From contig JAXDQS010000010.1 of assembly GCA_034667725.1 (NCBI GenBank), forward strand, positions 217,937 through 281,936: DNA of 64,000 nucleotides. The letters run 5' to 3'. A model generated the notes under the pieces. The model worked only from the letters and a program-made list of their open reading frames with translations. It did no database searches and had not been told where the DNA came from. Origin of the DNA: Thermoplasmata archaeon (GTDB lineage Archaea; Thermoplasmatota; E2; JACPAO01; JAHFTW01). The position numbers and the translations under genes were made by a program. Of the stretch, positions 3,662 through 51,094 are shown one piece after another; the stretch's first letter is position 1; every line of letters begins with the position of its first letter.

Positions 3662-3748
3662 CAGGGACACGCCTGGTTGCCCCCGGCGCCCGCATTATCC
3701 CGCCCCCGCATTTCGTGGGCCGGGGCGTGGTGGGCGCCCGCAAGGACG

Positions 3749-4954: not shown

Positions 4955-4984
4955 GGCCTCCACGCGCAGCCAAGGCCCTCGGGC

Positions 4985-5110
4985 CCGCCGGCCTTTCCGG
5001 TGCAGCCACTTGTTTTCCGCTCATCGGAAGCTGCGCGACGGCCCCGCCCCCAAGGGCAGGGTTCCACCGGAAGCAAGGGGGTCTCTGAAGGGGGCGGATA
5101 CCTATATTTC
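4985..5110. other. Candidate replication origin region with ORB-like elements upstream of orc1
   Basis: gttccaccggaagcaagggggtc at 5061-5083 resembles the archaeal origin recognition box (TTCCA-N-GGAA dyad plus G-string). A second G-string and partial dyads (ttccggtg at 4994, ttttccgctcatcggaagc) lie nearby. No strongly AT-rich unwinding element is visible. Confidence 0.35.
5102..5109 (+). promoter_or_regulatory. TATA-box-like element upstream of orc1
   Basis: ctatattt is an AT-rich octamer in a ~70% GC background, ~45 nt upstream of the in-frame ATG at 5153. Confidence 0.3.
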
Positions 5111-5152
5111 CCATGCCCGTCTTGGCACGAATCCCGCGGGGGTCCAGGACCC

Positions 5153-33835: not shown

Positions 33836-35119
33836 ATGGAGGAGGCGGCGCCCACCGAGAGCCCCTTGCCGGGCGCCGGCGCCAAGGGCAAGCCGGTGCG
33901 CGTCCACCCCTACGCGCTCGAGCTGTCCACGGCCGCCGAGCTGCGCCGCGACCCGCGCATGGTCACCCTGTTCTGGGCCGGCCTGGGCACGGCGCTGGTG
34001 CTGCTGGGATTGGGGCTCGCCAACCGCTTCAGCCCCTGCCTGAACGGCGTCGGCCCCGAGCCCTGCGCCACCCCCGCGGCATGGACCAGCTGGGTCCAGC
34101 TTCCCCTGTTCGGCGGCCTTGCCCTGCTGGGCTTCGGCTTCGTGCAGCGCCAATGGGCCCGCCGCGTCACGCTTGCCGGCTGGCTGCTGTTCGGGTTCTA
34201 CTGGGCGCTCACCGCGCAGGACCTGTTCGTGGCCGAGGGCGGCGACATCGTCAACCTCTGCTTCGCCATCGTCGGCGTCTACTTCTTCGTCTACCTGGCC
34301 TACCACCAATGGCTCTCCGAGGCGCGCGGCATCGAGAACCTCACCGTCCGGTTCCTCAACATCGCCACCTTCGTCGCCGCCGGCTCCTACTTCGTCATCG
34401 ACAAGATCGAGCCGGTCCGCAAATGGCTCATCCTCACCGTCAGCCGCCACACCGAATGGATGCTGGGGCTGTTCGGGCAAGGCGCCGACGCCGGCCTCCG
34501 GGCCGTCTACAACCCCGCCGGCAGCACGAGCGACTTCCAGGCCGACCTGGCCCGCTTCTACTACGAGGGCCACCTCAACCACTGCCCCTCGCAGCCGAGC
34601 GACTGGTTCTCCAGCCTGATGCACTGGGACCCGTTCGCCCGCCAAGCCCTCGACGCCTGCCGCGACTTCTCGGCCCACGAGGCCGTCATCGTCCCCGTCT
34701 CGATCATCCTGGCCTGCACCGCCCTCCAGTCCATCATGCTGTTCGTCGGCCTGTTCATGGGCACCCCGGCCCCATGGAAGCGGCGCCTGCTGGCGTCGGC
34801 CATCGTCGCCGCCGTCGTGTACGTCCTCAACCTGCTGCGGAACACCGGCATCGTGTGGTTCTACGGCCAAGGCGAGGCCTCGTTCTGGATGATGCACGAC
34901 GCCGTCGGCAAGGGCGGCAGCCTGGTCGCCATGATCCTCATCGCGTTCGCCGCCTTCGCCTGGTTCCCCGAGTTCCTCAAGGCGCTCGTCGGCGTGCTGG
35001 ACCTGCCGCACCGCGACGGCCCCATCGAGCGCACGCTGCGCCTTGGCAGGCGGCGGCCCGACCAAGGCGCGCCGCCAGCGGAGCCGCCGGCCGAGACGCC
35101 GGCACCCCCCGTCCACTGA
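33836..35119 (+). CDS. Polytopic membrane protein, candidate exosortase/archaeosortase-family enzyme
   Basis: 427 aa, ~8 TM helices. Cys293 sits in a TM helix (SIILACTAL) and NLLRN lies 42 residues later, reminiscent of the archaeosortase catalytic Cys/Arg arrangement recalled from the literature. Family assignment is tentative. Confidence 0.4.
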   Translation: MEEAAPTESPLPGAGAKGKPVRVHPYALELSTAAELRRDPRMVTLFWAGLGTALVLLGLGLANRFSPCLNGVGPEPCATPAAWTSWVQLPLFGGLALLGFGFVQRQWARRVTLAGWLLFGFYWALTAQDLFVAEGGDIVNLCFAIVGVYFFVYLAYHQWLSEARGIENLTVRFLNIATFVAAGSYFVIDKIEPVRKWLILTVSRHTEWMLGLFGQGADAGLRAVYNPAGSTSDFQADLARFYYEGHLNHCPSQPSDWFSSLMHWDPFARQALDACRDFSAHEAVIVPVSIILACTALQSIMLFVGLFMGTPAPWKRRLLASAIVAAVVYVLNLLRNTGIVWFYGQGEASFWMMHDAVGKGGSLVAMILIAFAAFAWFPEFLKALVGVLDLPHRDGPIERTLRLGRRRPDQGAPPAEPPAETPAPPVH

Positions 35120-35177
35120 AGGCGGGGTCGCGCCCGGCCTCCGATTTAATCATTTGCGCTCTGGGCCAGTGTTGGAC

Positions 35178-38100
35178 ATGGGCTGCAAACGGTCAAGAAG
35201 GCACGGCGGTCGCTGGGCCTTGACAATGGTCGTCCACCGCTTGTCCCCGCTCGCCGCTGCCTTCATCCTGGCAGTCTCCACCCTCGCCGCCGCGCCGGCG
35301 TCGGCCCTCATCGTCGGCCCCGTCGGCCCCATCGACCCCGACCTCATCAACGTAGACTGCGAGGACAGTGCCGCCGTTAGGGCCGCCTGCAACGCGGTGG
35401 CCACCCTCACGGAGGACCCTGGCGAGATCACCGTCGGGTGCGGCGACGGGTACGCCGGCAACGCCTGCCGCGAAGCCTTGGACACCCTCGAGGACCCGCC
35501 CGCGGCCTGCGAGGCCGTCACGTTCGCGATCTGCGAGGCGGTGGCCCGGCTGCTGGCCGACGACGGCGGCGACCCCGTCGGCCAGTGCCTGCACGACCTC
35601 GGCTTCGACACCGTCGTGATGCCCCAGCCCGGCACCAGCATCGTCAACCTGGACTGCTCGCAGCTTGGCGAGACCCTGGCGAGCCTCTACGTCATCCTGG
35701 ACAACCTGGCGGCGCGGGGCGGCGCCACCCTGAACTCCTGCCTGGCGCTGTTGGGCGACGGCATTGCCAACCTGGAGTCGAGCGGCCCGCCACTGGTGGA
35801 TTGCGAAGGCCTCGGCGAGACCGCCCGCGACACCGTCCAGGCCGCCATGGACCTGGTGGACCGCGAAGCCGACGACGCCATGCGCACCGTCGAGGCGTGC
35901 GTCTACGGCGCGCCCCCGCCGTCCGCCGGCGCCGCGCTGTGCCGCTCCCTCTACAACACGCTCGTCCTCTACCTCGCCTTCGCCGTCCAGACCGGCCTCC
36001 AGGCGGCCAACCACCAGCTTGAGTGCCAAGGCCTCGACACCGTCTCCATCACGGCGCCCGCCCCCGAGGGCGACCCGCCCGCCACCTTCGGCCTGCCGGA
36101 GGAGTGCGTGACCGCCCACCTGCTCTTGACCGCCGTCCAGGAGGCCGTCGCCAACGTGCTGCGCATCGCCGGCGACCTCGCGCCCTCCGTCTCGCTCTGT
36201 GTCGCCGAGGTCCCCGGCGGCCCCACCACCGTCACCCTCGACTGCCGCTACGTCGAGCGCGTCGTGCGCACCGTCGGCGACGCCGAGGCCACCGTCATGC
36301 TCGTCGTGCAGCAATACCTCGACGACTGCCAAGGCCGCGGCGCGCCCCCCGAGGGCCTGCCGAGCTGCCGCGAGCAGGTCGAGAACCTGCAGCGCATCGT
36401 GGACCGCAACTTCGCCGGCGCCTGGCGTGCCGCCCAGGAAGCCGCCGCCGACCTGCAGGCCTGCGCCGCGGCCGCCGCCGCGAGCACCTGCGCGGCCACG
36501 CAAGACTGCGCCCTGCTGCCCTGCGTCCTGCCCGGCGCCTGCGACACCGGCTGCGCCAGCAACGGCACCACCTCCTACCCGGCGCGCGCCAACGGCACCG
36601 CCACCGACGCCCGCATCGGCAACGTCTTCGAGTTCGTGGCCCCCGTCACGGGCGCCGCGGTCCCGGTCGACGTCCACGACTACGACGGGGACGGCATCCC
36701 CGACCTGCTGGACCCCGTCAACCTCCCCTCCGAGACCCTGCGCACGACCTCCGGCGCCGACAACCTGACGCTGCTGGACGGCCTCGGCGAGCAAGGCTTC
36801 GTCCTCTTGATCGAGCCCGGCCACCGGGAGGCCCAGCTCGTGGCCGCCGACCCGCTCGGCGTGGCCCTGTCGCTGCTGCCCGTCGAGGTGCTCGACGCCG
36901 CCACCACCCTCCAGCTTTTGGGCCAGACCCACGGCGGCCACGTCGCCGACCTGCTGGCCAGCGCCCTCAACGAGAACATGACGGTGAACGTCACCTGGGT
37001 CGTCCCGCAGCTGCCCACCGTCGTCCCCCTGCATTGGGCCGGCGGCGCCATCCCCGCCGACGGCAGCTGGCTCATGGCCCGCTCCGACCCGACCCGCCGC
37101 GTCACGTTGGCGCTCTCCGGCCTTGACGTCAAGCTGGAGGCCCCCAGCGCCAGCCACGCCAGCACCGACCCCGACCTGTCGTACCGCTGGGAGTTCCTCA
37201 ACCTCTGGGGCAAGAAGGGCTTCTGCTTCGACCCCACCACCTACACCGGCGGCACCGGCCAGTGCGAAGGCAAGGCCGAGCCCGGCTGGCTGCGCGCCTA
37301 CAGCGGCCGCGCCCACTACGCCCTCCAGGCCGTCGCCGAGAACCTGGAGCGCGGCCTGTCCGACCTGGCGGCGACCCCGGCGGGCACCAACGGCACCGCC
37401 CTGGAGCCCATCCTGGCGCCGACCGAGGGCCTGCGCGGCGACGAGGTCCCCGCCGACGCCATCGACCTGTTCGACCCCTCCTCGCTGGTGCACGCCATCG
37501 GCGACAACAGCACCTCGTTCCCGCCCGGCGTCGGCGTCGACTACCAGGTCCCGGCCCGCGAGCCGCGCTCCCTGCCGCGCCCCGCCATCCTGCAAGCCCC
37601 CGACGCCCTGCTCACGACCGACGTGGACCTGTCGGCCTACCGCCCGACGCGCACCTTCCGCTTCGACGCCCAGTTCTACGAGACCCCCGGCACGCCGCGC
37701 GACCTGCAGCTGCTGACGCTGCACATCACGCCGGCCGACGGCAACGACGCCGCCCAGACCTTCGTGCTCGACGGCCGCGCCTTCACGGAGTACCTGCGCC
37801 TGCTGCCCGGCGAGCAGCTCGCCCTCGATATCGACGCCGATCACTTGGACGGCTTCGTCCAGGTCTCCAAGGACGTCAACGCCGACGGCTGGGAGGACCT
37901 CGTCGTGCAGGTGCCCCACTTCAGCACCGTCACCATGGACGTCCACAGCGACAACTCGATCGCCTACCCCATGTGGACCATGGTCAAGATGACCAGCGCC
38001 ACCGAGGGCTGGCTCACCGGCCCTTACGGCGCCATGTACAAGTACAGCGCCGGCCGCGTCTACCGTCACGACATCCCCGGCCTCGCGGGCCAGATGCGCT

Positions 38101-41100
38101 CCATCGCGCTGCACGTCGTCGGCCCCAACGACGTCTGGGTGGCGGGCGACGGCGACTGCAACCTCGCCGACCCGTCGCCGTTCATCGCCCACTACTACTA
38201 CGGCAGCTGGAGCATCTTCCGCACGTCGCAGGTCGGCCCCGGCTGGGCCTGCGAGGGCTTCATCACCATCTGGATGGACCCCACCGGCTCCTTCGGCTAC
38301 GCGGGCGGCACCGACGGCATGTGGTTCAAGTACGCCAGCGGCGCGTGGAACCCCGCCCCCAGCCCCGCGCCCGGCGCCTGCGTCCGCGACATCGCCTTCG
38401 ACAGCAGCGGCCGCGGCTACGTCGGCGCCAACACCGACTTGTGCCTGGCCAGCGGCCGCCCCGCCATCAGTTACTGGGACGGCAGCTCGTGGAGCAGCCA
38501 CAGCACCTACGGCAGCACCGAGATCTGGAGCGTCATGGACGGCTCCGGCCAATGGGCCGCCGCCATTCCCAAGGACCCGGCCACCCACGGCATCCTGCAA
38601 CAGTCCGGCTCGTCCTGGTCCCTCGCCTCCGTCCCCGTTCCGGCGGGCCATTACTACGGCATGACGCGCGCGCCCGACAGCCGCCTCTGGTTCAGCGCCA
38701 CCGACCGCAGCAACCGCGGCTTCCTGGTCGAACGCGACCCGTCCGGCACCTGGACGACGCACTGGTTCCAGACCCGCATCGGCTTCCTGCGCGACGTCTC
38801 GATGTCGTCCAGCACGGCGGGCCTCGTCGTCGGCGACAAGAACATCCTGGCCATCCAGGTCTCGTCGGCCGCCGCCGCCTCCGCCGACTGGATCTGGGAC
38901 AGCCTGTCGCCGACCTCCGGCACCACCAGCACGACGTTCGCCGGCCGCGACTCCGGCACCCGCGACCCCGACAGCGGCAGCGGCACCGTCGCGCACACCT
39001 GGAACTGGGGCGACGGCTCGGCCAACGACCTGGCCGCCAACGCCGACCACGTCTACCAGGCGCCCGGCACCTACGCCGTCACCCACCAGGTGCGTGCCAG
39101 CAGCACCGGCCAGGCCAACGCGCACGGCTGGACCGTCACGGTGAACCCCCAGTCCACCAGCATCGGCCCCAGCACCTCGGACTCGCTGCCCGCCGGCACC
39201 CGCGTGGCCCCGAAGTACTACCAGTACACCAACGCGGCCAGCGACGGCCAGGCGCATGACTTCCGCGTCGTGCTCGGCGGCGCTGCCGGCGTCAAGATGA
39301 CGATCCGCAAGGGCACCGGCATGGGCGACTTCAGCGCCGGCGGCAACTGGCCCAACTACGGCGCCGCCGGCCGCGACCTGTCCGGCCCCATCGCCTACGG
39401 CCAGTCCATCACCATCCGGGTCGAGCAGGACACCAGCGTGAGCCCCTACGGCGGCTCCTACACCCTCACGGTGACGCAGCTGCCGCCCCCGCCCAACCCG
39501 GCCTTGAGCAGCCTGGTGCCGCAGCCGATGGAGGCGCTGACCCGCGGCTACGAGGAGCTGACGTTCCGCGTCACCTGGACCGACACGCAAGGCTACCAGC
39601 CCCGCGACGCCAGCGGCGCCACCAGCCCGCCCACCATCACGCTGGACACCAACGGCGACGGCGCCCTGGAGACCTACTCCATGCACCTGGACCGGCCGCT
39701 GTTCACCGGCTCCACCTACAAGGCGATCTACTCGTACTCGACCTACCTCAAGGAAGGCAGCGGCACCCAGCCGATCTACAAGGCTTGGGACACGCAGCCC
39801 TACCAGCAGGTCGCCACCGGCGCCTGGATCTACGCCCGCGCCACCGTCCTCAAGGCCTACGACTTCGAGGCCGACGCCGTCGACCGCCTCCCGGCAGGCT
39901 TCGCCAACGTCCCGCTGGCCGGCCACCCGGTGAGCTACTGGCACGTCACCGACACCGCCAAGGCGGGCACGCCCGACCGCGTCGCCTTCGGCGCGCACGG
40001 CAAGGCCCTCTGGTTCGGCCAGGAGTCCTCCGGGAACTACGTCGACGCCGACGGCCGCGCCCCGGGCGGCGCCCTCGAGACGCCGGTGCACGACCTGAAC
40101 CGCATGGACAAGCCGGTGCTGTCGTTCGCGTCGCTCTACGAGACCCAGGACGACGGCAGCAGCATCGACGTCAAGCAGGTCCACATCAAGGCCCGCGACC
40201 CCGGCGGCGTCTGGGGCGGCTGGGTGCTGCTGCAGGCCGTCCACGGCCCCGGCTTCCTGCCCGGCCGCTGGAACACCGTGGCCGCCAGCCTCGCCGACTA
40301 CGCCGGCAAGGAGGTCGTGCTGCGCTTCCAGTTCCAGGCCGACAACGCCAACAACGGCTACCTCGGCTGGTACGTCGACGACATCGTGCTCGGCAGCGAC
40401 GCCGACGGCGACCTGATCCCCGACCTGAAGGAGGCCAACCGCGTCATCGGGCTCCGCAACGGCGCCGTCGGCCCCGTCAACGTCGCCCCCGGCCAGACCG
40501 GCGCCAGCTACGTCAACCGCGTCAGCACCTCCGGCTTCCAGGGTGTCGTCGCCGAGGCCGTCCTCTACTCCGAGCGGCCGCAGGACCTGCGCGTCGAGCT
40601 GCTGGTGCCGCCGGCGGGCACGCTCCCCGGCGACTTCCCCGCGCTCACGACCGAATTCCGGCCGTTCAAGCTGAACCCGGCCGCGGCGCCCGCCACCGAC
40701 ACGGTGTGCGGCGTCACCAGCCCGGTGCGCAACTCCCTGTCGCCCTGGTACGCGACCTACCCGAACCTGCTCTTGGACCCCGCCACCGGCTTCGACAACC
40801 CCCGCATCGGCGGCGGCTTCGGCCCCGACTCGCGCCCGACCGTCGTGCCGATCCACGCCCTGGAGTTCAAGCGGGTCGACGGCGTCGGCCTTGCCATCAA
40901 GGCGGACCTCACCGAATGCCTCAAGGCCGCCGGCTTGAGCGAGTTCGGCGTCCACGACGTCGTGCTGCGCGTCCAGAACACCGCCGCCTCCGGCACCGCG
41001 ACCATCGAGTCGTTCGCGGTCACCGGCGTCGGCCGGTCGTCGATGTTCAGCGCCCGCAGCGCCGCCATCGGCATGGGCGACTACCGCGCCAGCGACGGCG

Positions 41101-42806
41101 GCTGGCTGGGCGGCGGCACGCCGCTGGGCCCCGACGCCGACTGGGACGGCATGGCGCGCGGCGAGGACGGCAACGACATGGTGCCGACCTACGTGCCGTT
41201 GGTCTTCGTCGACTACAACAAGCCCGAGGAGGGCCTGCAGTTCGCCCTCGACAGCAAGCGCGTCGTGCTGTCCGTCGACATCCTGGCCACCACCGGCACC
41301 ACCACGCGCGACGTCGCGACCCCGGTGGCCCAGGCCTACGGCGAGTGGCGCAACTACGTCCTGCCGGCCAGCCGGTTCGCCGGCGCCGACAGCCTGCGCA
41401 TCGTCGTCAGCCTGGCCGGCGGCTCGGTCATGACCATCGAGGCGGCCTTCAAGGACCGCCAGCCGCAGCTGGCCAGCCTCACCGAGTCCTTCCTGGCCGA
41501 CCCCGGCAACCCCTCGCCGGAGCCTGGCAGCCACTACCTGACCGACGCCGAGCGCAACCTCGGCTACATCATGGGCGGCGCCAAGGCCCTCTACTGGGTC
41601 TACAAGGCGGGCAAGCTCATCACGGGCGTCGGGGCCGCCGAGACCGCCCTCGAAGGGGCCACCCTGGTCGTCAAGACCGTCGGCAAGTGGGCCATCGTCA
41701 AGGTCGCCAAGGAGGGCCTCAAGTCGGCCTACGCCTCCAGTGGCGAGCTCACCATCTACGAGAAGACCTCGCGCCACAACATCTACAAGGGCCGGACCTC
41801 GCGCGGCGACTACCCCGAGGTCTACGACCTCTTGGACGAGGCCATCACCAACGCCCAAGGCCCGTACCCCACCATCGGCGGCAACAACGTCTGGTTCTAC
41901 GAGAAGGCGGTGGACCCGTCGACGGGCGCCATCGCCAAGCTCTACGTGCTGGAGACCCGCCAGGACGGCGACCTGTTCCGCGGCTGGGGCCACTCGCTTG
42001 CCAGCTGGGGCCAGATGGTGTCGCGGCCCTACACGGCCGGCGCGGACGCCAACACCGTCCACGCCACCGACGTCTCGGACATCCAGAGCATCGAGCGGCT
42101 GGCCAAGGTCGCCGGCCCGTACCCGAGCTTCGGGAGCTTCCTGTGCGCCGTCACTTGCTATGCCGAGGTGGACGGCGACCCCGGCCGCGTCCACCTGCAA
42201 GCCTACGGCGTCAACTGGGACAACCGCCACGACAGCAAGCTCGACGTCGACGCCGGCTGGGTCACGGCGGCGCGCTACGCCGCCTACCGCCCGAACTCGT
42301 GGGTGCCTTCCATCAACGAGGGCCAGCGCGACCTCCAGCTCGCGGGCTGGATCCGGTCGTACCGCTTCATCCACGACAACGGCGTCCACGCCTCGGCCTC
42401 GCAGGACGCGAAGGCCTTCTGGGGCGACGACTACGCCTCGAACCCAGGATGCGCTGCCGAGACCACGCGCCGCTGCCAGGCGCCGACCGCGACCTTCGAC
42501 GGCCACGGCGTCTTCGCCCAGGGCTTCACCCTGCGCTGGACGACCTCGTCGAGCCCCACGGTCCTCAAGACCGACAAGGCGGCCAGCTTCGGCCTCTACA
42601 CCAACTCCGACCGCGGGCCCTGGGATGGCCGCTCCGGCATCGAAAAGAGGCGCGACACCCTGGCGACGTCGCTCGGCACCCCGGGCTCCGGCCATGACGC
42701 GAACCTCATCCTGGCGCTCGACGCCAGCGGCGCCACCTGGGAGGACGACCACTACTACCCAGAGTACGGCCCGCACACCTTGGAGGAGTTCTACGACGTC
42801 CCGTAG
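35178..42806 (+). CDS. Giant secreted multidomain protein (~2540 aa)
   Basis: Single uninterrupted frame. Signal peptide, Cys-rich helical N-terminal ~450 aa, propeller-like W/Y/G-rich repeats, a PKD-like domain (TVAHTWNWGDGSANDLAANADHVYQAPGTYAVTHQV), a GWYVDDIVLG motif and a ~600-aa K/Y/I-rich C-terminal module. The antisense ORF is low-complexity. Confidence 0.7.
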   Translation: MGCKRSRRHGGRWALTMVVHRLSPLAAAFILAVSTLAAAPASALIVGPVGPIDPDLINVDCEDSAAVRAACNAVATLTEDPGEITVGCGDGYAGNACREALDTLEDPPAACEAVTFAICEAVARLLADDGGDPVGQCLHDLGFDTVVMPQPGTSIVNLDCSQLGETLASLYVILDNLAARGGATLNSCLALLGDGIANLESSGPPLVDCEGLGETARDTVQAAMDLVDREADDAMRTVEACVYGAPPPSAGAALCRSLYNTLVLYLAFAVQTGLQAANHQLECQGLDTVSITAPAPEGDPPATFGLPEECVTAHLLLTAVQEAVANVLRIAGDLAPSVSLCVAEVPGGPTTVTLDCRYVERVVRTVGDAEATVMLVVQQYLDDCQGRGAPPEGLPSCREQVENLQRIVDRNFAGAWRAAQEAAADLQACAAAAAASTCAATQDCALLPCVLPGACDTGCASNGTTSYPARANGTATDARIGNVFEFVAPVTGAAVPVDVHDYDGDGIPDLLDPVNLPSETLRTTSGADNLTLLDGLGEQGFVLLIEPGHREAQLVAADPLGVALSLLPVEVLDAATTLQLLGQTHGGHVADLLASALNENMTVNVTWVVPQLPTVVPLHWAGGAIPADGSWLMARSDPTRRVTLALSGLDVKLEAPSASHASTDPDLSYRWEFLNLWGKKGFCFDPTTYTGGTGQCEGKAEPGWLRAYSGRAHYALQAVAENLERGLSDLAATPAGTNGTALEPILAPTEGLRGDEVPADAIDLFDPSSLVHAIGDNSTSFPPGVGVDYQVPAREPRSLPRPAILQAPDALLTTDVDLSAYRPTRTFRFDAQFYETPGTPRDLQLLTLHITPADGNDAAQTFVLDGRAFTEYLRLLPGEQLALDIDADHLDGFVQVSKDVNADGWEDLVVQVPHFSTVTMDVHSDNSIAYPMWTMVKMTSATEGWLTGPYGAMYKYSAGRVYRHDIPGLAGQMRSIALHVVGPNDVWVAGDGDCNLADPSPFIAHYYYGSWSIFRTSQVGPGWACEGFITIWMDPTGSFGYAGGTDGMWFKYASGAWNPAPSPAPGACVRDIAFDSSGRGYVGANTDLCLASGRPAISYWDGSSWSSHSTYGSTEIWSVMDGSGQWAAAIPKDPATHGILQQSGSSWSLASVPVPAGHYYGMTRAPDSRLWFSATDRSNRGFLVERDPSGTWTTHWFQTRIGFLRDVSMSSSTAGLVVGDKNILAIQVSSAAAASADWIWDSLSPTSGTTSTTFAGRDSGTRDPDSGSGTVAHTWNWGDGSANDLAANADHVYQAPGTYAVTHQVRASSTGQANAHGWTVTVNPQSTSIGPSTSDSLPAGTRVAPKYYQYTNAASDGQAHDFRVVLGGAAGVKMTIRKGTGMGDFSAGGNWPNYGAAGRDLSGPIAYGQSITIRVEQDTSVSPYGGSYTLTVTQLPPPPNPALSSLVPQPMEALTRGYEELTFRVTWTDTQGYQPRDASGATSPPTITLDTNGDGALETYSMHLDRPLFTGSTYKAIYSYSTYLKEGSGTQPIYKAWDTQPYQQVATGAWIYARATVLKAYDFEADAVDRLPAGFANVPLAGHPVSYWHVTDTAKAGTPDRVAFGAHGKALWFGQESSGNYVDADGRAPGGALETPVHDLNRMDKPVLSFASLYETQDDGSSIDVKQVHIKARDPGGVWGGWVLLQAVHGPGFLPGRWNTVAASLADYAGKEVVLRFQFQADNANNGYLGWYVDDIVLGSDADGDLIPDLKEANRVIGLRNGAVGPVNVAPGQTGASYVNRVSTSGFQGVVAEAVLYSERPQDLRVELLVPPAGTLPGDFPALTTEFRPFKLNPAAAPATDTVCGVTSPVRNSLSPWYATYPNLLLDPATGFDNPRIGGGFGPDSRPTVVPIHALEFKRVDGVGLAIKADLTECLKAAGLSEFGVHDVVLRVQNTAASGTATIESFAVTGVGRSSMFSARSAAIGMGDYRASDGGWLGGGTPLGPDADWDGMARGEDGNDMVPTYVPLVFVDYNKPEEGLQFALDSKRVVLSVDILATTGTTTRDVATPVAQAYGEWRNYVLPASRFAGADSLRIVVSLAGGSVMTIEAAFKDRQPQLASLTESFLADPGNPSPEPGSHYLTDAERNLGYIMGGAKALYWVYKAGKLITGVGAAETALEGATLVVKTVGKWAIVKVAKEGLKSAYASSGELTIYEKTSRHNIYKGRTSRGDYPEVYDLLDEAITNAQGPYPTIGGNNVWFYEKAVDPSTGAIAKLYVLETRQDGDLFRGWGHSLASWGQMVSRPYTAGADANTVHATDVSDIQSIERLAKVAGPYPSFGSFLCAVTCYAEVDGDPGRVHLQAYGVNWDNRHDSKLDVDAGWVTAARYAAYRPNSWVPSINEGQRDLQLAGWIRSYRFIHDNGVHASASQDAKAFWGDDYASNPGCAAETTRRCQAPTATFDGHGVFAQGFTLRWTTSSSPTVLKTDKAASFGLYTNSDRGPWDGRSGIEKRRDTLATSLGTPGSGHDANLILALDASGATWEDDHYYPEYGPHTLEEFYDVP

Positions 42807-43938
42807 CCGCGCCCTCTTGGCCGTCGCGGCGGCGCTGCTGCTGGCCGGCTGCCTGGGGTCGGTGGACGACGGCAGCCAGGCCCCGCCGCCGGACGCCTGC
42901 GCGGACGGCGTGCCGCCGTGCGTCCGCAACGCCGACGCCGAGCTGCTGGAGGCCAAGTACGGCTTCCGGCAACTCAGCAACGGCACCGGCCGGCCGCTCC
43001 AGCCGTGGGTCACGAACGGCTTCGCCGGCTGGTCGGTGTTCTACTCGGACGCCTCCCCCCGCGTGGACCTCGCGGCGCGGACCCTGGCGGAAGATGACGA
43101 CGACGGCGCGGCCCGCGGGCTCACGCTGGCGGCCGGCGGCAAGGTCGCCTACACCTTGACGCCGCTGGCCAACGACGCGCTCGACCACGCCCACGCCCGC
43201 CTGCTGCTGCAGGACGCCGCCACCGGCGAGGCCACGCCCCTCGTGGAGGACCGCGGGCTGTATCCTCGCGCCTTCGGCCCGCCGTGGCTGCTGCTGCAAG
43301 AAGACAAGGGCGACGGCGCGCCGCGCGACCTCTGGGCCCTCCACGTCGAGACGCGGGCGCTGCAACTGGTCTCCGACCGCAGCGGCGAGGCCCACGGCGG
43401 CCCCGTCGTGACCGGCCACGCCGTCGCCGGCCACCACGCCGTCTGGGCCGAGGCCGAGCCCCAGCCGGACGGAAGCTTCGCCTACTCGGTGCGCACCCGC
43501 GACCTGGAGGCCCAAGCCGACGGCCCGACGTTCCGCGTCGCCGGCGGCGGCGAGGTCGACTGGATCGCCAGCACCGGCGCCGCCGCGGCCATCCTGGTCG
43601 GCCACGACGCGGGCGCCGACCTTTTGCTCTTCGACCCCGCCACCGGCCAGGCACGCCCGCTGGGCCCCGAGCCCGGCTGGAACGCGGTGCTCGCCGCCGC
43701 GGGCGGCGGCGCCGTCGTCGTGGCCGAGCGCCGCGGCGACGACGAGGCCCGGCTGCGCCTCATCCGCGCCGACGGCACGTCGGAGGCGCTGGCGGACCTG
43801 GAGGAGCTGGCGGTGGCGTCGATGGCCACCGACGGCCACGACCTCGTGCTGGTGGCCTACGCGTCGCCAAGCCGCGGCCTGCGCTACGAAGGCACCCAGG
43901 TCTACTGGAAGCCGCTCGACCTCGGCAATCGCGCTTAA
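42693..43938 (+). CDS. Putative lipoprotein (beta-rich), start uncertain
   Basis: Lipobox LLLAGC after a basic n-region (TSRSRALLAVAAALLLAGCLG). The only upstream in-frame ATG (42693) overlaps the giant gene's 3' end by 113 nt in another frame; a TTG at 42816 is the alternative. Confidence 0.45.
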
Positions 43939-43941
43939 GAG

Positions 43942-44598
43942 TTGCACCTCCGTCGCGCCGCCGTGGCGCGCTTTGCGCGGGGGTCCGCCCCCTGGCTGCT
44001 GGCCCCCGTGACCCTCGCGGTCGTGCTGGTGGCCTACGGTCTGCAGTCGAAGGACGTCTGGCCGTTCGTCGCCGCGGTCCTGCCGCTCTTGGTGTTCGCG
44101 TTCTTCATCGTGTTCTTCCGCGACCCCGACCGCCTGGCCTCGGAAGGCATCGCGAGCCCCGCCGACGGCACCGTGAGCTTCATCGACGAGGTGGACGACC
44201 CCGACCTCGGCCGGGTCGAGCGCTTCTCGATCTTCATGTCGCCTAAGGACGTCCACGTCAACCGCTACCCGGTGGACGGCACCGTCGTGTCGGTGCTGCA
44301 CAAGCCCGGCGGCCACGTGCCCGCCTTCAACAAGGAGGCCGAGCGCAACGAGCGGGTCGAGACCCTGCTGGCCACCGCCCACGGCCGCGTCAAGGTCATC
44401 CAGATCGCCGGCACCGTGGCCCGCCGCATCGTGCCCTACCACAAGGCCGGCGAGGCCGCCGTCAAGGGCGAGCGCTTCGGCCTCATCCGCCTCGGCTCGC
44501 GCTGCGACATCCTGGTCGCGCCCGGCACGGTGCGCTGGACCGTCCCGCCCGGCACCCAGGTCTACGCCGGCACCACCAGCCTGGGGGCGTTCAAGTGA
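43942..44598 (+). CDS. psd: Archaetidylserine (phosphatidylserine) decarboxylase proenzyme, short form
   Basis: 218 aa; N-terminal membrane helices, Psd-like core and a near-C-terminal GTTS motif consistent with the self-cleavage site of short PSDs. Confidence 0.65.
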   Translation: MHLRRAAVARFARGSAPWLLAPVTLAVVLVAYGLQSKDVWPFVAAVLPLLVFAFFIVFFRDPDRLASEGIASPADGTVSFIDEVDDPDLGRVERFSIFMSPKDVHVNRYPVDGTVVSVLHKPGGHVPAFNKEAERNERVETLLATAHGRVKVIQIAGTVARRIVPYHKAGEAAVKGERFGLIRLGSRCDILVAPGTVRWTVPPGTQVYAGTTSLGAFK

Positions 44599-45443
44599 CC
44601 CAGCCGCCGCCCGGCGCCCCTGGCGCCCCCGCCGCGGGCGACGGCGACACCTGGCGCGGCTACTTCCGCGCCGCCCTGCGCGACGAGTGGGACGGCCTCG
44701 ACCGCATCAACCGCGACCTCCGGCTGGCGGACCTGTTCACGCTCACCAACGCCCTCATGGGCCTCGCCGCGCTGCTGCTGATCGCCACCGCGCCCTACGA
44801 GGCCCGCTGGGACCGCATCCACCTCGCCATCGAGCTGGTCCTGGTCGGCGTCATCATGGACGGCGTCGACGGCGCCGTGTCCCGCATGGGCAAAGGCAAC
44901 GGCCCGCTCGGCGCCGTCCTCGACACGCTCGCCGACGCCTTGACCTTCGTCGCCACCAGCGCCGTCGTCACCTTCGTCTTCATCGACACCGCCCGCGGCG
45001 GCGAGACCGACCCGTTCCTCGACCGCTGGGGCAGCCTGCTCGCCCTCGGCTTCTACGTCGTGTGCGGCCTGCTGCGCCTGGCCCGCTTCGAGTCGCTCCG
45101 GGACACCGGCAAGCCCCGCGACTACTTCTCCGGCATCCCGACGCCCGCCGCCGCCCTCATGCTGCTGGCCATGGTGCTGGTCGAGTCGCCCGACTGGCTG
45201 CTGCTGTCGGCCGCGTTCGTGCTCGGCATCCTCATGACGACCCGCGCCCGCTACCCGAAGATCCGCGGCTGGATCGCCGTCGGCACCGTCGCCATCCTGC
45301 TCGCCATCCTCGTGAGCTTCAGCAACCCCGACTTCCAGGCGTGGCTCGCGCGCGGCCTCCTGGCCCTCATGGCGCTCTACGTCCTTGCCGGCCCCTTCGT
45401 CGTGCTCGCCCGCCACGGCGCCAACTTCCCGGGGTCCCGGTAG
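44595..45443 (+). CDS. pssA: CDP-alcohol phosphatidyltransferase (archaetidylserine synthase-like)
   Basis: DGxxAR...G...G...D...D signature in DGVDGAVSRMGKGNGPLGAVLDTLADALTF; multiple TM helices. Start overlaps the psd stop. Confidence 0.75.
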   Translation: MTQPPPGAPGAPAAGDGDTWRGYFRAALRDEWDGLDRINRDLRLADLFTLTNALMGLAALLLIATAPYEARWDRIHLAIELVLVGVIMDGVDGAVSRMGKGNGPLGAVLDTLADALTFVATSAVVTFVFIDTARGGETDPFLDRWGSLLALGFYVVCGLLRLARFESLRDTGKPRDYFSGIPTPAAALMLLAMVLVESPDWLLLSAAFVLGILMTTRARYPKIRGWIAVGTVAILLAILVSFSNPDFQAWLARGLLALMALYVLAGPFVVLARHGANFPGSR

Positions 45444-45444
45444 G

Positions 45445-46896
45445 ATGCCCAAGGCCCCGCGCCAACGACGCACCAGCATCCGCACCGCCAGCGACGCCGT
45501 CCAAGACCAGTACGTCGCCCGCATCCGCGCCCTCGCCGACGACCCCACCGTCGTGCTCCCCGAGCCCGTCGGCCCCGAGCACCCCGTCCTTGCCAAGCTG
45601 CGCCGCCGCCTAAAGGCCGGCAAGCTCCCCGTCACCGCCCGCTTCGACAAAGGCCTCGTCGGCGCCGTCCGCGTCGCCCTGTCCCTCGCCGACGTCGACT
45701 CGGCGCCCCGCATGGTGGACGCCCGCGTCGACGGCAACCGCCGCTTCTACCTCCAGCGCGGCCACGTCGTCCGCCTGTGCAACCTCGGCGTCCAGAACTG
45801 GGACGACCCCCTCAGCCTGATGCTCGCCTACGGCCGCCTCGCCCCCAAGCACGGCCTCCACCTGTTCGCCGGCGACAAGCTCTGGTGCAGCGGCGCCAAG
45901 CCCAACCCCCCGCCCGAATGGTTCGCCGCCCTGGCCCGCCGCACCGGCGTCCCCCTCACCCCCAACGACGACGGCGCCGCCTGCCCGCACGGCGACCGCC
46001 CCCGCCTCGAGCTCCGTATGCGCAACGGCCCCGCCCTCCTCGTGTGCGGCCCCTGCGGCGCCAAGTCCGCCAGCGGCGGCATGAACCTCCACGGCCACCT
46101 CCTGCAACGCTACCTCAGCGACCGCCCCGCCCGCCCCGTCGAGCTCGCCGTCCGCCTCCCCGACGGCAAACGCCACGACCTGCCCGACACCCTCCAGGCC
46201 AGCTACCGCGCCGGCCGCGCCGACGAAGCCGCCATCCTCGAGGTCGCCCTCCAGGCGTTCCACGGCTCGCGCGCCGACGGCGGCTACGTCGCCGCCGGCC
46301 GCACCTACCCCACCCAGTCCGCCTTCCTCGACGCCCTCGGCCTCGCGCCCTGGGAAATGGAGGCCGTCCGCCGCATGACCGCCGACGGCCACATCGGGCC
46401 CAGCCTCGACGTGCCCGTGGTGCTGGCGGCGCACGCCGACAAGCTGCCCGAGGCCGTCGAGGCGCTGCTGCCCGGCGACGGCGCCGCGTTCGCAAGGAAG
46501 CACGCCGGCACCGAGGCGCGGACTTTGCTGCGGATGGCGCACGACGAGGCGCAACGGCGGGCGCGGACCCGCGACTTGCCTGTGCTGGAGGGCGTGGGCC
46601 CGTTGGGGCAGTGGATGGACGCGTTCGTCCGGCAGGCGCGGACTTTGGACCGCGGCGAGCTGCTGCAACAAGTCCGCAAGGAGATCGGCAACCCACGGCA
46701 CCCGGCGCACCTGTACGCTTTTTTGTGCGCGGCGGGATTGGAAAGCGAGGGGGAACGGAGCTTCACCTTGGACCAAAGGGAGGCCGGCAAGCACTGGTCA
46801 GGCGCTGCGGCGAAGGTGATGGCTTCCACTGGTGAAGGGTATCGGCTGGCCGTGCTGGAGTATCTCAGGGAGACGGGGGCGGGGGAGGGGGCGTAG
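45445..46896 (+). CDS. Hypothetical protein with Cys cluster
   Basis: 483 aa; CSGAKP...CPHGDRP...LVCGPCG suggests a metal-binding site. No family recognised. Confidence 0.45.
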   Translation: MPKAPRQRRTSIRTASDAVQDQYVARIRALADDPTVVLPEPVGPEHPVLAKLRRRLKAGKLPVTARFDKGLVGAVRVALSLADVDSAPRMVDARVDGNRRFYLQRGHVVRLCNLGVQNWDDPLSLMLAYGRLAPKHGLHLFAGDKLWCSGAKPNPPPEWFAALARRTGVPLTPNDDGAACPHGDRPRLELRMRNGPALLVCGPCGAKSASGGMNLHGHLLQRYLSDRPARPVELAVRLPDGKRHDLPDTLQASYRAGRADEAAILEVALQAFHGSRADGGYVAAGRTYPTQSAFLDALGLAPWEMEAVRRMTADGHIGPSLDVPVVLAAHADKLPEAVEALLPGDGAAFARKHAGTEARTLLRMAHDEAQRRARTRDLPVLEGVGPLGQWMDAFVRQARTLDRGELLQQVRKEIGNPRHPAHLYAFLCAAGLESEGERSFTLDQREAGKHWSGAAAKVMASTGEGYRLAVLEYLRETGAGEGA

Positions 46897-46958
46897 TCCC
46901 CTCCGCTTCGACGGCCTCTCCCCTCCCCTTCAAATCCCGTTCCCCCCTCAAGCCCGCC

Positions 46959-48311
46959 ATGGTCATGGAAGGCCTCGGCGAGTCCCTGAGGTCCACCCTT
47001 CGCAAGCTCGCCAACGCCGGCCGCATCGACGCCGAGCTGATCAAGGAGGTCACGCGCGACATCCAGCGGGCGCTCATCCAGGCCGACATGAACGTCCGCC
47101 TCGTCCTAAGCCTCTCCAAGACCATCGAGCGGCGGGCGCTTGAGGAAAAGCCCCTGTCCGGGATGTCGAACCGGGAGCACGTGGTCCGCATCGTCCACGA
47201 CGAGCTGGTCAAGCTCCTGGGCGAGCCGCGCACCATCCCGCTCAAGAAGCAGGTCATCATGATGGTCGGCCTCTACGGCCAGGGCAAGACGACGACCACG
47301 GGCAAGCTGGCGCTTCACTTCAAGAAAAAGGGGATGCGGGTGGGCGTCATCGCCGCCGACGTCCATCGGCCTGCGGCGCACGCGCAGCTCAAGACGCTTG
47401 CCGACAAGGTGCAGGTCATGTTCTACGGCGAGGAGGGGGCGCGCGACGCCGCCGGCATCGTGACCCGCGGCTTGGCCGAGTTGCGCAAGAAGAACGACAT
47501 CCTCATCGTGGACACGGCCGGCCGCGACAAGCTGGAGGCCTCGCTCATCGACGAGATGAAGGACATCTTCGAGGCGGCCAAGCCGGACGAGAAGTTCCTC
47601 GTCATGGACGCCGCCGTCGGCCAGCAGGCGGAGTCGCAGGCCAAGGCGTTCCACGACGCCGTGCAGGTCACGGGCGTCATCATCACGAAGCTCGACGGCA
47701 CGGCCAAGGGCGGCGGCGCGCTGTCGGCGGTCGCGGTCACGAAAGCCCCCGTGGTCTTCATCGGCACCGGCGAGCATGTCGACGAGCTGGAGCCCCTCGA
47801 CCCGAAGCGCTTCATCGGCCGCCTCCTGGGCATGGGCGACCTGGAGGCGCTCTTGGAGAAGGCGAACGCCGCCATGGAGGGCAAGGACGCGGAGAAGGTG
47901 GCGCGCAAGATGCTCACCGGCCGCTTCACCCTCAACGACATGATGGCGCAGATGGAGATGGTCAACAAGATGGGGCCGCTCGGGAAGGTCGCCCAGATGC
48001 TGCCCGGCAACCTCGGCCAGGCATTGCAAGGCCGCGACATGGAAGGGACCCAGAAGAAGCTCGCCACCTACAAGACCATCATGACCTCGATGACGGACGA
48101 CGAGCGCGAGGACCCCAACCTCCTCAAGGCGCCCCGCATCGGCCGCATCGCGCGCGGCTCCGGCCGCACCACCAACGAGGTCCGCGAGCTCTTGAAGTAC
48201 TACGAGGCGACGAAGGGCATGATGAAGGGCATCGGCAGCAACCGCAAGATGCAGCGCAACCTGATGCGCCAGATGGGCCAGAAGGGCGGCGGCCGCGGCG
48301 GGAAGGCCTAG
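46959..48311 (+). CDS. srp54: Signal recognition particle protein SRP54
   Basis: 450 aa. N domain, GTPase motifs (GLYGQGKTTTTGKLA, DTAGR, TKLDG) and Met-rich M domain (MMAQMEMVNKMGPLGKVAQMLPG). Confidence 0.9.
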   Translation: MVMEGLGESLRSTLRKLANAGRIDAELIKEVTRDIQRALIQADMNVRLVLSLSKTIERRALEEKPLSGMSNREHVVRIVHDELVKLLGEPRTIPLKKQVIMMVGLYGQGKTTTTGKLALHFKKKGMRVGVIAADVHRPAAHAQLKTLADKVQVMFYGEEGARDAAGIVTRGLAELRKKNDILIVDTAGRDKLEASLIDEMKDIFEAAKPDEKFLVMDAAVGQQAESQAKAFHDAVQVTGVIITKLDGTAKGGGALSAVAVTKAPVVFIGTGEHVDELEPLDPKRFIGRLLGMGDLEALLEKANAAMEGKDAEKVARKMLTGRFTLNDMMAQMEMVNKMGPLGKVAQMLPGNLGQALQGRDMEGTQKKLATYKTIMTSMTDDEREDPNLLKAPRIGRIARGSGRTTNEVRELLKYYEATKGMMKGIGSNRKMQRNLMRQMGQKGGGRGGKA

Positions 48312-48934
48312 TGCGCCGCTTCGTCTTCGTCTCGCACACCGGCGACTCCAGCGGCGACTGGCACCTCAACGACCTGTCCGCCGGCGCCGGCCGCGTCGAC
48401 TTGCTGTGCCGCAACGTCCAGTCGGCGTTCTTCCTCAGCCATGGCTTGCGGGAGGACGTCGAGGCCTACCTCGTGTTCGCGGCCAGCCCCGTGCGCCAGA
48501 AGGTCGTCCGCATCCAAGGCAACGCCATCCAGATGCTGCATCCCGACGAGCGCAGCACGGCGGCCCGCATCCAGCAGGCGCTCAAGGTGCAGTGGTCCGT
48601 GCCCGACTGGAAGGAGGTCCAGCGCGGCTTGGCGGTCGCGCGCTTCGGGCTGGAGGAACTGCTGGAGGAGCTGAAGGGGAAGGGCACGCTCGTCCTCTTG
48701 GACCCGCAGGGGCAGCCGGTGCAGGAGTGGAGCCCGCCGGCGGACCCGATCCTGCTGCTGTCCGACCATGTGCCGTTCACCAAGGCCGAGTACCAACTGC
48801 TGGACGGCATGGGCGCGCAACGGGTGAGCCTCGGCCCCTACTGGTATCATGGCAACCATGCGGCGGCGGTCGTGCAGTGGCGCATCGACCAGGTGGTGGC
48901 GCCGGTGTCCAGCGATCCCCGCAACGCCAAGTAG
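48311..48934 (+). CDS. trmY: tRNA pseudouridine(54) N1-methyltransferase TrmY-like (SPOUT family)
   Basis: GRVDLLCR, SAFFLSHGLREDV, PDERS and C-terminal VSLGPYWYHGNHAAAVVQWRID match my recollection of TrmY/DUF358. GTG start overlaps the SRP54 stop. Confidence 0.6.
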   Translation: MRRFVFVSHTGDSSGDWHLNDLSAGAGRVDLLCRNVQSAFFLSHGLREDVEAYLVFAASPVRQKVVRIQGNAIQMLHPDERSTAARIQQALKVQWSVPDWKEVQRGLAVARFGLEELLEELKGKGTLVLLDPQGQPVQEWSPPADPILLLSDHVPFTKAEYQLLDGMGAQRVSLGPYWYHGNHAAAVVQWRIDQVVAPVSSDPRNAK

Positions 48935-48955: not shown

Positions 48956-49579
48956 GTGGGCACCGAGGTCCAAGGCACCGTCACCGTCGGCGGCCAGAAG
49001 GTGCAGGTCAAGGCCGACTTCGCGAGCGACCACGTCACGTTCAGCGGCGGCCGGCGCGGCGAGGTGCCCTACAGCAAGATCCAGGTGGTGGGCACCGGGA
49101 AGGGCGTGCTGCGGCTGCGGGTCGACGACGCGCTCATGGAGTTCCCGCTCGGCGAGAAGGTCGACCGGATGGCGAACAAGATCCGCTCGCCGCCCACGCT
49201 GGTCGAGAAGCTCGGCGTCAAGCCAGGCATGAAGGTCGCGGGCCTCGACCTGCCGTCCGCCCTCGTGAAGCAGCTCAAGACGGCCGCGACGTTCTCCGAG
49301 CGCGAGCCGGCGCAGCCGGTGCAGATGATGTTCCTGGGCATCAAGGGCGTCGAGGGGTTGGAGCGGCTCGAAGGGCTTGTGCGCAGAATCCATCCGGACG
49401 GCGCCATCTGGGTGGTCTACCCGAAGGGCAAGCGCGACATCCGCGAGTCGGACGTGCTGGCGGCGGGGCGCGCCGTGGGCCTCAAGGACGTCAAGGTGGC
49501 GCGCATCTCGACCAACCACACGGCGCTCAAGTTCATGATCCCGGTCGCAGACCGCCAGGCGCCGCCCGCCGAGGCATGA
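48956..49579 (+). CDS. Hypothetical protein
   Basis: 207 aa, GTG start, coding-like composition. No family recognised. Confidence 0.4.
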   Translation: MGTEVQGTVTVGGQKVQVKADFASDHVTFSGGRRGEVPYSKIQVVGTGKGVLRLRVDDALMEFPLGEKVDRMANKIRSPPTLVEKLGVKPGMKVAGLDLPSALVKQLKTAATFSEREPAQPVQMMFLGIKGVEGLERLEGLVRRIHPDGAIWVVYPKGKRDIRESDVLAAGRAVGLKDVKVARISTNHTALKFMIPVADRQAPPAEA

Positions 49580-49866
49580 CGGTCCGCTGCGCCTGCCTGC
49601 ATTGGACCTCGCCGCTCGACCTCGTGTCGTTCCGGTTCGCCTGCTGCGCGCCGTGGTGGCCATGCGATTTGTGCCACCAGGAGGCCGCCGGCCATCCGGC
49701 CGAACCGTGGCCGAGCGCCCGGTTCCACGAGCCGAGCGTCTTGTGCGGCGCCTGCGGCAACGCCATGACGGCGCCGGCCTACGTCGCGTCGGGGTCGCGG
49801 TGCCCGTCGTGCGCCGCGCCGTTCAACCCGGGCTGCCGGCCGCATTGGCCGCGCTATTTTCAGTAG
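49576..49866 (+). CDS. Small Cys/His-rich protein, CHY zinc-finger-like
   Basis: 96 aa with ~12 Cys and several His in CxxC/CxH spacing; ATG overlaps the upstream stop. Confidence 0.4.
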   Translation: MTVRCACLHWTSPLDLVSFRFACCAPWWPCDLCHQEAAGHPAEPWPSARFHEPSVLCGACGNAMTAPAYVASGSRCPSCAAPFNPGCRPHWPRYFQ

Positions 49867-51011
49867 ACCTCGAACAGGATGGCGAAGCCTTGGCCGCCGC
49901 CGACGCACATGGTCTCGACGGCGAGGCCGCCCCCCTTCTTGCCGAGGGCGTCGAAGATGTGCGCCGCGATGCGCGCGCCGGAGGCGCCGAGGGGGTGCCC
50001 GAGCGCGATGGCGCCGCCGTCCGGGTTGACGATCTCCTCGGGGACTTGCAGTTCGCGGATGCAGGCGAGCACTTGGCTGGCGAACGCCTCGTTGATCTCG
50101 AAGTGGTCGAGGTCGGACACCTTGGTGTTGGTCTGGGCGAGGAGCTTGCGGACGGCGGGGACGGGGCCGATGCCCATGACCTCCGGCGCGACGCCGGCGA
50201 CCGCGGCGCCCAGGATGCGGCCCTTGGGTTCCAGGCTGTGCTGCTCGGCGAACTTGCTGCTCGTGATGAGGCTCATGGCGGCGCCGTCGCTCATCTGGCT
50301 GGCGTTGCCGGCGGTGACGACGCCGTCCGGGCGGAACGCGGGCTTCAGGGCCGCGGTGGCCTCGTAGGTCGAGCCGTAGCGGATGCCTTCGTCCTTGGAC
50401 ACCACCGTGCCGTTCACCGTGACGGGGACGATCTCGCCGTCGAACCGGCCCGCCTTCTGGGCGGCCTCGGCGCGGGTGTGGCTGCGCACGCCCCAGCGGT
50501 CCATGTCCTCGCGGCTGACCTTGTAGCGCGACGCGACCTCCTCCGCGGTGATGCCCATTGCGTTGTAGTAGGATTTGCGGACCTCGACCATGCGCGGGTT
50601 GAGGTAGAGCTCCGGGGTCATGCCGACCATCGGGATGAGGCTCATGGTCTCGACGCCGCCGGCGACGATGCAGTCGTTCCAGCCCGACTCGATGGTCGAG
50701 TGCGCGACGGCCATCGCGTAGGCGCTGCTGGAGCAGAAGCGGTTGATGGTCGCGGCGCCCGCCGTGTCCGGCAGGCCGCCGAGCAACGCGACTTGGCGGG
50801 CGACGTTGTAACCTTGCGGCCCCTCCGTCATGGCGCACCCGACCAAGACGTCCTCGACGGTGTTGGGGTCGAGCTTGGTGCGGCGCATCAGGCCCTCGAT
50901 GCACCAGGCGCCCAGGTCGTCGCTGCGGGTCTTGGCGAACGCGCCCTTGAACGCGCGTCCGATCGGCGTGCGGCAGGCGTCGATGACGACGGCGTCCGGC
51001 TTCACGGCCAT
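49860..51011 (-). CDS. Acetyl-CoA C-acetyltransferase (thiolase)
   Basis: Thiolase N-terminus VIDACRTPIGRAF, active-site Cys region NRFCSSSAYAM, C-terminal catalytic His/Cys (GHPLGASGARI, CVGGGQG). Start taken at the internal Met (MAVKPDAVV). Confidence 0.85.
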   Translation of the reverse strand: MAVKPDAVVIDACRTPIGRAFKGAFAKTRSDDLGAWCIEGLMRRTKLDPNTVEDVLVGCAMTEGPQGYNVARQVALLGGLPDTAGAATINRFCSSSAYAMAVAHSTIESGWNDCIVAGGVETMSLIPMVGMTPELYLNPRMVEVRKSYYNAMGITAEEVASRYKVSREDMDRWGVRSHTRAEAAQKAGRFDGEIVPVTVNGTVVSKDEGIRYGSTYEATAALKPAFRPDGVVTAGNASQMSDGAAMSLITSSKFAEQHSLEPKGRILGAAVAGVAPEVMGIGPVPAVRKLLAQTNTKVSDLDHFEINEAFASQVLACIRELQVPEEIVNPDGGAIALGHPLGASGARIAAHIFDALGKKGGGLAVETMCVGGGQGFAILFEVY

Positions 51012-51094
51012 CGCAACCCGGGCTTGCACATGGTCGCTTCGGCTGGGGAGAGAGCCTTCAACCCCCAAGCGGTTGGGCCGCCTGGAGCCGCCCG

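Follow-up and report, generated by a model that had tools for sequence, protein, structure and literature searches.

An undescribed protein family of Thermoplasmatota, encoded beside the archaetidylserine genes in one clade of the phylum

The pssA-ybfM-psd operon of Bacillus subtilis carries ybfM as a third gene beside pssA and psd. A third gene of this type, uncharacterised and co-transcribed with pssA and psd, is proposed here for an archaeal locus. The locus lies in a stretch of 64,000 nucleotides (the window) from a Thermoplasmata archaeon (assembly GCA_034667725.1, contig JAXDQS010000010.1, positions 217,937 to 281,936 of the forward strand), in which a gene at positions 45445 to 46896, here called X, directly follows psd and pssA. 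However, X has no sequence relationship with the ybfM-type third genes, its product is soluble, and its link with psd and pssA is found in one clade only. X belongs to an undescribed protein family that is restricted to the archaeal phylum Thermoplasmatota.

A second comparison concerns a predicted metal site in X. Treble-clef and zinc-ribbon fingers are a structural class found, for example, in ribosomal proteins, in insertions of aminoacyl-tRNA synthetases and in His-Me nucleases. With treble-clef fingers, X has in common two conserved ligand pairs, for which the predicted secondary structure suggests a similar placement, with C-x-H at a β hairpin and C-x2-C at a hairpin end and the first turn of a helix. 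Unlike in the known fingers, the putative site covers only about 40 of the 483 residues, the rest of the fold matches nothing, and some family members lack the ligands.

At the level of gene content, Meheust et al. 2022 (PMC9258230) reported a Thermoplasmata-specific gene module (module 171) made up mostly of families for which no function is predicted. The X family resembles such lineage-specific hypothetical families in being near-ubiquitous in one major archaeal lineage, absent elsewhere and without functional prediction, but that paper contains no structure or context analysis for the X family.

The X gene and its family

X is a genuine single-copy chromosomal gene, as follows:

45445 to 46896, plus strand: gene X, encoding a 483-aa soluble protein of isoelectric point (pI) 9.45 from an unnamed family, called from the open reading frame (ORF), the homologues and the GC content at third codon positions (GC3)

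The 483-aa ORF of the original prediction is real, with homologues that align over the full length and with consistent start, stop and GC3. Translation starts at the ATG at 45445, located 1 nt past the TAG stop codon of pssA (45441-45443), and ends with the stop codon at 46894-46896. An alternative TTG start at 45385, 60 nt upstream, would yield a protein of 503 aa; the N-termini of the homologues align to the ATG at 45445. GC3 in the X frame is 0.93, compared to 0.95-0.99 in the flanking genes. The GC content of the window is about 72%, and the long ORFs that overlap the X locus in other frames and on the opposite strand are the usual artefacts of high-GC DNA.

A word-indexed search returned 26 close clusters with 42-100% identity to X, all of 470-506 aa and all from metagenome-assembled genomes (MAGs) of Thermoplasmata or Thermoplasmatota. 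The E-values of full-length homologues reach 1e-244, and the identical NCBI protein is annotated as 'hypothetical protein QOD77_1849 [Thermoplasmata archaeon]'. An exhaustive profile search over 1.84 billion representatives (50%-identity clusters, E <= 1e-3) extended the family to 231 clusters at 50% identity, 183 of them with E<1e-10 and 96 with E<1e-30; the majority span the full length, at 480-560 aa. The named members belong to Methanomassiliicoccales, Poseidoniia and unclassified Thermoplasmatota, and all are labelled 'hypothetical protein'. Among those of Methanomassiliicoccales are RefSeq proteins from Ca. Methanomassiliicoccus intestinalis, such as the Cys-rich orthologue WP_400260014.1. 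A few records carry the labels 'bacterium', 'Halobacteriales' or 'Altiarchaeales', which are presumably mislabelled MAGs. No relative was found on viral contigs, and a mobile-element origin was rejected on that ground.

No description of the family was found in the literature on the archaetidylserine operon, DUF835, Thermoplasmata signature proteins or wyosine enzymes. The earlier view of X as conserved but uncharacterised thus agrees with a phylum-wide conservation among proteins that are all annotated as hypothetical; neither a confident match to a known family nor absence from relatives was seen. The Thermoplasmatota comprise the Poseidoniia, which are abundant in the ocean, the Methanomassiliicoccales, with methanogens of the human gut, and numerous lineages from soil and sediment, and the traits that set the phylum apart are mostly represented by 'hypothetical' proteins (PMC9258230). 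The function of X, once known, would fill a lineage-defining gap and could reveal an RNA-handling factor or a player in archaeal membrane head-group metabolism. Uncharacterised conserved protein families are common, and nothing yet points X to a surprising mechanism.

Predicted fold, modules and metal site

Searches with X against Pfam, NCBIfam, PHROGs and PADLOC at E<=0.01 gave no match, and none was obtained against PDB sequences with the single sequence of X, with a profile of the close family (A1) or with a profile of distant members (A2). Thirty distant members were likewise without a Pfam match at E<=0.01, save one sub-threshold match to DUF2118 (E 0.0086), and 54 distant members yielded no recurrent Pfam family at E<=1. 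No informative domain fusion was seen in the longest members of the family or in those that match in part. The AlphaFold2 (AF2) model of X has a mean predicted local distance difference test score (pLDDT) of 89.6 and a predicted template modelling score (pTM) of 0.63, and the model of a Cys-rich relative, P0211, a compact single globule, reaches a pLDDT of 92.0 and a pTM of 0.79. With both confident models, Foldseek found no PDB match at E<0.001 (best E 0.37 and 0.68, template modelling score (TM) <= 0.13), and the best match of one model in BFVD has an E of 0.80. The family therefore falls outside every known kind tested and is an orphan in both sequence and predicted fold, which agrees with the original statement that X has no recognisable family and extends it to the structural level.

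Three specific identities were rejected. Clamp-loader delta/RFC-like (AAA+) subunits recur only as noise-level Foldseek matches, with E 1-7 and TM of about 0.1. The radical-SAM enzymes share with many distant members of the family a CxxxCxxC motif at the N-terminus; however, X itself has no CxxxCxxC, one subgroup carries C-x2-H-x2-H in its place, none of the 54 members matches PF04055/Radical_SAM at E<=1, and no TIM-barrel match was found. A ferredoxin Pfam family is equally unmatched across these 54 members at the same threshold. Finally, the phospholipid head-group enzyme families PF01066 and PF02666 are matched by the neighbours of X and not by X, which lacks a transmembrane segment.

The model of X predicts, with confidence, a fold of two modules. 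The conservation of their features was counted in 26 close sequences (alignment A1) and, family-wide, in 145 full-length members:

45445 to 45492, plus strand: basic N-terminal tail MPKAPRQRRTSIRTAS, with an invariant R13-T14-A15 (alignments A1 and A3)
45445 to 46239, plus strand: N-terminal module (aa 1-265), pI 10.2
45784 to 45810, plus strand: motif L-G-V-Q-N-W-D-D-P (aa 114-122), the most conserved of the family (GVQNxDDP)
45886 to 45888, plus strand: C148, in the context LWCSG, kept in 128/145 members and replaced by Ser in several close relatives
45958 to 46071, plus strand: putative treble-clef-like zinc site (aa 172-209) with C180-x-H182 and C201-x2-C204
46240 to 46893, plus strand: C-terminal module (aa 266-483), 218 residues, mostly helical and mildly acidic, pI 6.1

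Residues 1-10 of the tail have a pLDDT below 50 and are predicted to be disordered. Within the GVQNxDDP motif, Q117 is kept in 140 of the 145 members, and at the other end of the protein the tail L-R-E-T-G-A-G-E-G-A is conserved (G-x-G-E), with G478 present in 138/145. X is soluble, without a transmembrane segment or an amphipathic anchor, and its highest Kyte-Doolittle value over a 19-residue window is 1.05. The N-terminal module occurs alone, as a protein of about 260 aa, in some lineages (loci L023 and L025; representatives P0041, P0043, P0045 and P0048). The short genes of L023 (4537-5331) and L025 (5989-6792) end just past a conserved Y-x2-G-x3-E motif; the Cys3His ligands are retained in L025 and lost in L023.

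X contains six cysteines, at positions 112, 148, 180, 201, 204 and 428. C180, H182, C201 and C204 occur without exception in the close sequences and are kept in 125-129 of the 145 members family-wide, whereas C112 and C428 are not conserved. According to DSSP, the C-x-H pair in the AF2 model of X lies just after strands 172-174/177-179, and the C-x2-C pair lies where strand 197-201 meets helix 202-209, at the end of the second hairpin and in the first turn of that helix. The P0211 model places the ligand pairs in the same way relative to hairpin and helix. On the basis of these models, the Cys3His site appears to have treble-clef geometry and would bind a structural zinc. As judged from the alignments, C148 probably represents a relic, the fourth ligand of an N-terminal Cys/His site lost in the clade of X. 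The metal-binding Cys cluster that had been proposed earlier is hereby retained in part: a conserved Cys3His site of metal-binding type is present, but as a single site plus a relic Cys and not as a multi-Cys cluster.

Most of the distant family members possess up to seven further conserved cysteines, which brings their total to up to 11. These are arranged as a CxxxCxxC motif near target position 41-47, two or three residues in an insert near 241 and a 'CYG' at 287, and all seven are lost in the high-GC clade of X. In one subgroup (P0049-like; alignment A3, columns ~38-50), CxxxCxxC is replaced by a conserved C-x2-H-x2-H, and for this reason the extra sites are more likely to be zinc sites than iron-sulfur (Fe-S) sites. 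Furthermore, the Cys3His ligands are absent altogether in P0031, P0032, P0037, P0038 and L023, and because some members do without them, a structural role of the metal sites seems likelier than a catalytic one. Metal sites have been lost stepwise in different lineages of the family.

Gene order around X

Two genes upstream and two genes downstream of X were identified by Pfam and NCBIfam matches, as originally described for this genome:

43942 to 44598, plus strand: psd, archaetidylserine decarboxylase-type (PF02666, E 1e-38), the first gene of the psd-pssA-X unit
44595 to 45443, plus strand: pssA, archaetidylserine synthase-type CDP-alcohol phosphatidyltransferase (PF01066; TIGR04217 below cut-off)
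46959 to 48311: SRP54, downstream of X
48311 to 48934: TrmY (NF002560 above cut-off)

The genes psd and pssA overlap by 4 nt. In this genome psd, pssA and X form a translationally coupled unit; X, its last cistron, would thus be produced along with the archaetidylserine/ethanolamine enzymes. When one genome was scanned for each GTDB species, 19 loci were found, all from Thermoplasmatota and with 38-60% identity to X, and psd, pssA and X lie on one strand in 17 of these 19 species-level loci. The distances from the pssA stop to the X start in the 17 species are -14, -4, -1, 0, +1, +3 to +13 and up to about +41 to +50 nt. In the other two species, psd-pssA is replaced upstream of X by an 872-aa RNB-domain gene (RNase R/II-like). 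The RNB-X subclade comprises the loci L005 (RNB gene at 3381-5999), L006, L012 and L013, with a gap of 1 nt in L005, L006 and L012. Apart from these four loci, no RNB homologue was found in the window or in the close-clade flanks, and homologues of Trm5, DUF835 and NAD kinase are missing from the 64-kb window and from these flanks as well.

The downstream side is different. SRP54 or TrmY follows X in none of 25 related loci, and the X-SRP54 junction is therefore specific to the source genome. Where the flank was recovered in the close clade, X is followed by a convergent pair of 2-oxoacid:ferredoxin oxidoreductase (PFOR) genes, which is kept beside X about as well as psd-pssA. Since the convergent PFOR genes are equally conserved, general synteny accounts for part of the psd-pssA-X signal. 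Hence, of the conserved order psd-pssA-X-srp54 that was suggested originally, the first three genes hold in the close clade, but SRP54 and TrmY do not recur in the relatives and the link to psd and pssA fails outside the clade. X does lie in a housekeeping setting, but little about its function can be read from the specific order of the genes.

In Methanomassiliicoccales, Poseidoniia and other Thermoplasmata, X is not located near psd or pssA. In four loci of Methanomassiliicoccales type (L029-L032), X stands alone, with a divergent DUF835 gene on its upstream side; downstream, a gene for a Trm5/TYW2-type methyltransferase converges on X with a 3' overlap of 0-14 nt (7550-7563 in L029, 7490-7503 in L031 and 7503-7504 in L032), while in L030 one gene lies between the two. 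In another Thermoplasmata lineage, a CBS gene is divergent upstream of X and Trm5 is one gene off. In Poseidoniia (L033, 2387-8098; L034-L045), the order is NAD kinase, X (after a 2-nt gap) and a BNR-repeat protein. The minus strand there carries a Trm5/TYW2-like and an AP_endonuc_2 gene, which diverge from NAD kinase, and the Trm5/TYW2-type gene is two genes from X. A Trm5/TYW2-type gene is thus adjacent to X or within two genes of it in three deeply separated lineages, in differing arrangements, and this proximity is to be read as a lead only. Frequent translation-related neighbours of X are aminoacyl-tRNA synthetase genes, SRP54 and TrmY.

Some further features of the window surround this unit. 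Upstream, a 2587-aa ORF at 35043-42806 (plus strand), with a single PKD domain as its sole Pfam match, is followed on the same strand by an ORF of about 350 aa at 42886-43938 (plus strand), whose N-terminus contains a lipobox-like 'LLLAGC' and which is without Pfam match. This second ORF ends 3 nt before psd, and psd-pssA-X may therefore be the tail of a longer plus-strand unit. At the other end, in the region 46884-46958, a perfect GC hairpin of 7 bp (ggagggg-gcgtagt-cccctcc) has the stop codon of X in its loop. The sole AT-rich box of the 62-nt spacer between X and SRP54 ('ttcaaat') is found about 25 nt ahead of the SRP54 ATG, which may point to a promoter of its own for SRP54 and to a leaderless mRNA. 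No tRNA genes and no Rfam families at the gathering threshold were found in the whole 64-kb window. TrmY is directly followed by a 207-aa ORF at 48956-49579 (plus strand) without Pfam or NCBIfam match, and a thiolase gene is located at 49860-51068 (minus strand).

Possible functions of X

The upstream partner of X varies between pssA, an RNase R-like gene, NAD kinase and none, which argues for operon hitch-hiking rather than pathway membership as the origin of the lipid linkage. The basic multi-zinc N-terminal module, the RNase R-like partner in one subclade and the translation-related neighbours lead to the working hypothesis of an RNA-directed housekeeping factor. X is tentatively proposed to be a polyanion-binding housekeeping factor with several zinc sites, and its likeliest ligand would be RNA or tRNA. 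According to this proposal, the polyanionic substrate would be bound by the basic N-terminal module, and the C-terminal module and its tail would mediate a protein contact.

Several points weigh against an RNA-directed role. No known RNA-binding fold was detected in X, a putative nucleic-acid binder, and the sequences are compatible with either zinc or Fe-S at the metal sites. The Trm5 gene, missing as it is from the window and the close-clade flanks, is convergent or divergent to X wherever it occurs and never part of its transcription unit, and inherited synteny could account for the proximity. In its own clade, X has its strongest hard linkage to the lipid head-group genes (17/19 species), and a basic patch binds anionic lipids just as well as RNA. 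In addition, the conserved polar residues Q117, D120/D121, Y254, E304, D392 and R396 could, as far as the alignments indicate, form the active site of a small-molecule enzyme.

A broader proposal, put forward with rather less assurance, is that X founds an undescribed fold and family for a Thermoplasmatota-specific housekeeping step, either as a multi-zinc factor that processes or modifies tRNA or RNA and is tied to Trm5-type methyltransferases, or as a soluble component of archaeal serine/ethanolamine lipid head-group metabolism. If this is true, X represents a phylum-wide piece of cell biology without counterpart in other archaea, given that the family is present in the gut methanogen Ca. 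Methanomassiliicoccus intestinalis as well as in marine Poseidoniia.

The main rival to the RNA-directed reading is an accessory role in archaetidylserine/archaetidylethanolamine synthesis. X would then sit at the membrane periphery, with its basic N-terminal module docked on anionic head groups, and would assist, regulate or use the product of PssA or Psd, for example by chaperoning Psd maturation, by flux control or by head-group transfer. This role is unlikely, even though the one-strand arrangement with overlapping or abutting codons persists in species whose X proteins are only 38-60% identical, pssA and X are separated by a single nucleotide in the window, and a module of pI 10.2 with a polybasic tail suits an anionic surface. 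A UbiA-family prenyltransferase gene divergent to X at one distant locus points in the same direction. However, the linkage to psd and pssA is limited to one clade, and the equally conserved convergent PFOR genes leave much of the signal to general synteny. Elsewhere X is coupled to the RNase R-like gene (in a sister subclade) or to NAD kinase (in Poseidoniia), or it stands alone (in Methanomassiliicoccales and others). Furthermore, X has neither a transmembrane segment nor an amphipathic anchor and is dissimilar to all lipid enzymes.

Less probable again is a redox or Fe-S dependent metallo-enzyme that acts on a small molecule, with an Fe-S centre in most relatives and a reduced version in the oxic high-GC clade. 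The up to 11 conserved cysteines, including the N-terminal CxxxCxxC of most members, and the single globule predicted for the Cys-rich member P0211 are consistent with such an enzyme; the invariant polar residues Q117, Y254, E304, D392 and R396 would fit an active site, and NAD kinase is one of the operon partners. Against it stand the failure to match any radical-SAM or ferredoxin Pfam family or, by Foldseek, a TIM barrel or other known enzyme fold, and the exchange of Cys for His in one subgroup, which is typical of zinc and not of Fe-S. Moreover, entire Cys sites have disappeared from several healthy-looking lineages, the clade of X included.

The idea that X, composed of a zinc finger and a helical domain, regulates transcription by binding DNA or takes part in replication is improbable. 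In its favour, the predicted zinc-finger module is basic, the gene for the primase small subunit PriS is divergent to X in one locus, and in Methanomassiliicoccales genes for PolX and PCNA are found less than 6 kb from X. Clamp-loader subunits do recur among the Foldseek matches of both models, but at a noise level that makes them no evidence. No helix-turn-helix or winged-helix Pfam match was found, a single-copy protein of 483 aa with phylum-wide occurrence is atypical for a local regulator, and a position as last cistron of varying operons misfits an autoregulator.

The notion that X is a chance open frame, which 72%-GC DNA invites by its many long spurious ORFs, several of them overlapping the X locus, has practically no probability left and is refuted by the homologues, the alignment and the AF2 fold: hundreds of full-length homologues share conserved motifs and indel patterns, and the in-frame GC3, the confident predicted fold and the conserved operon position all agree with a protein-coding gene.

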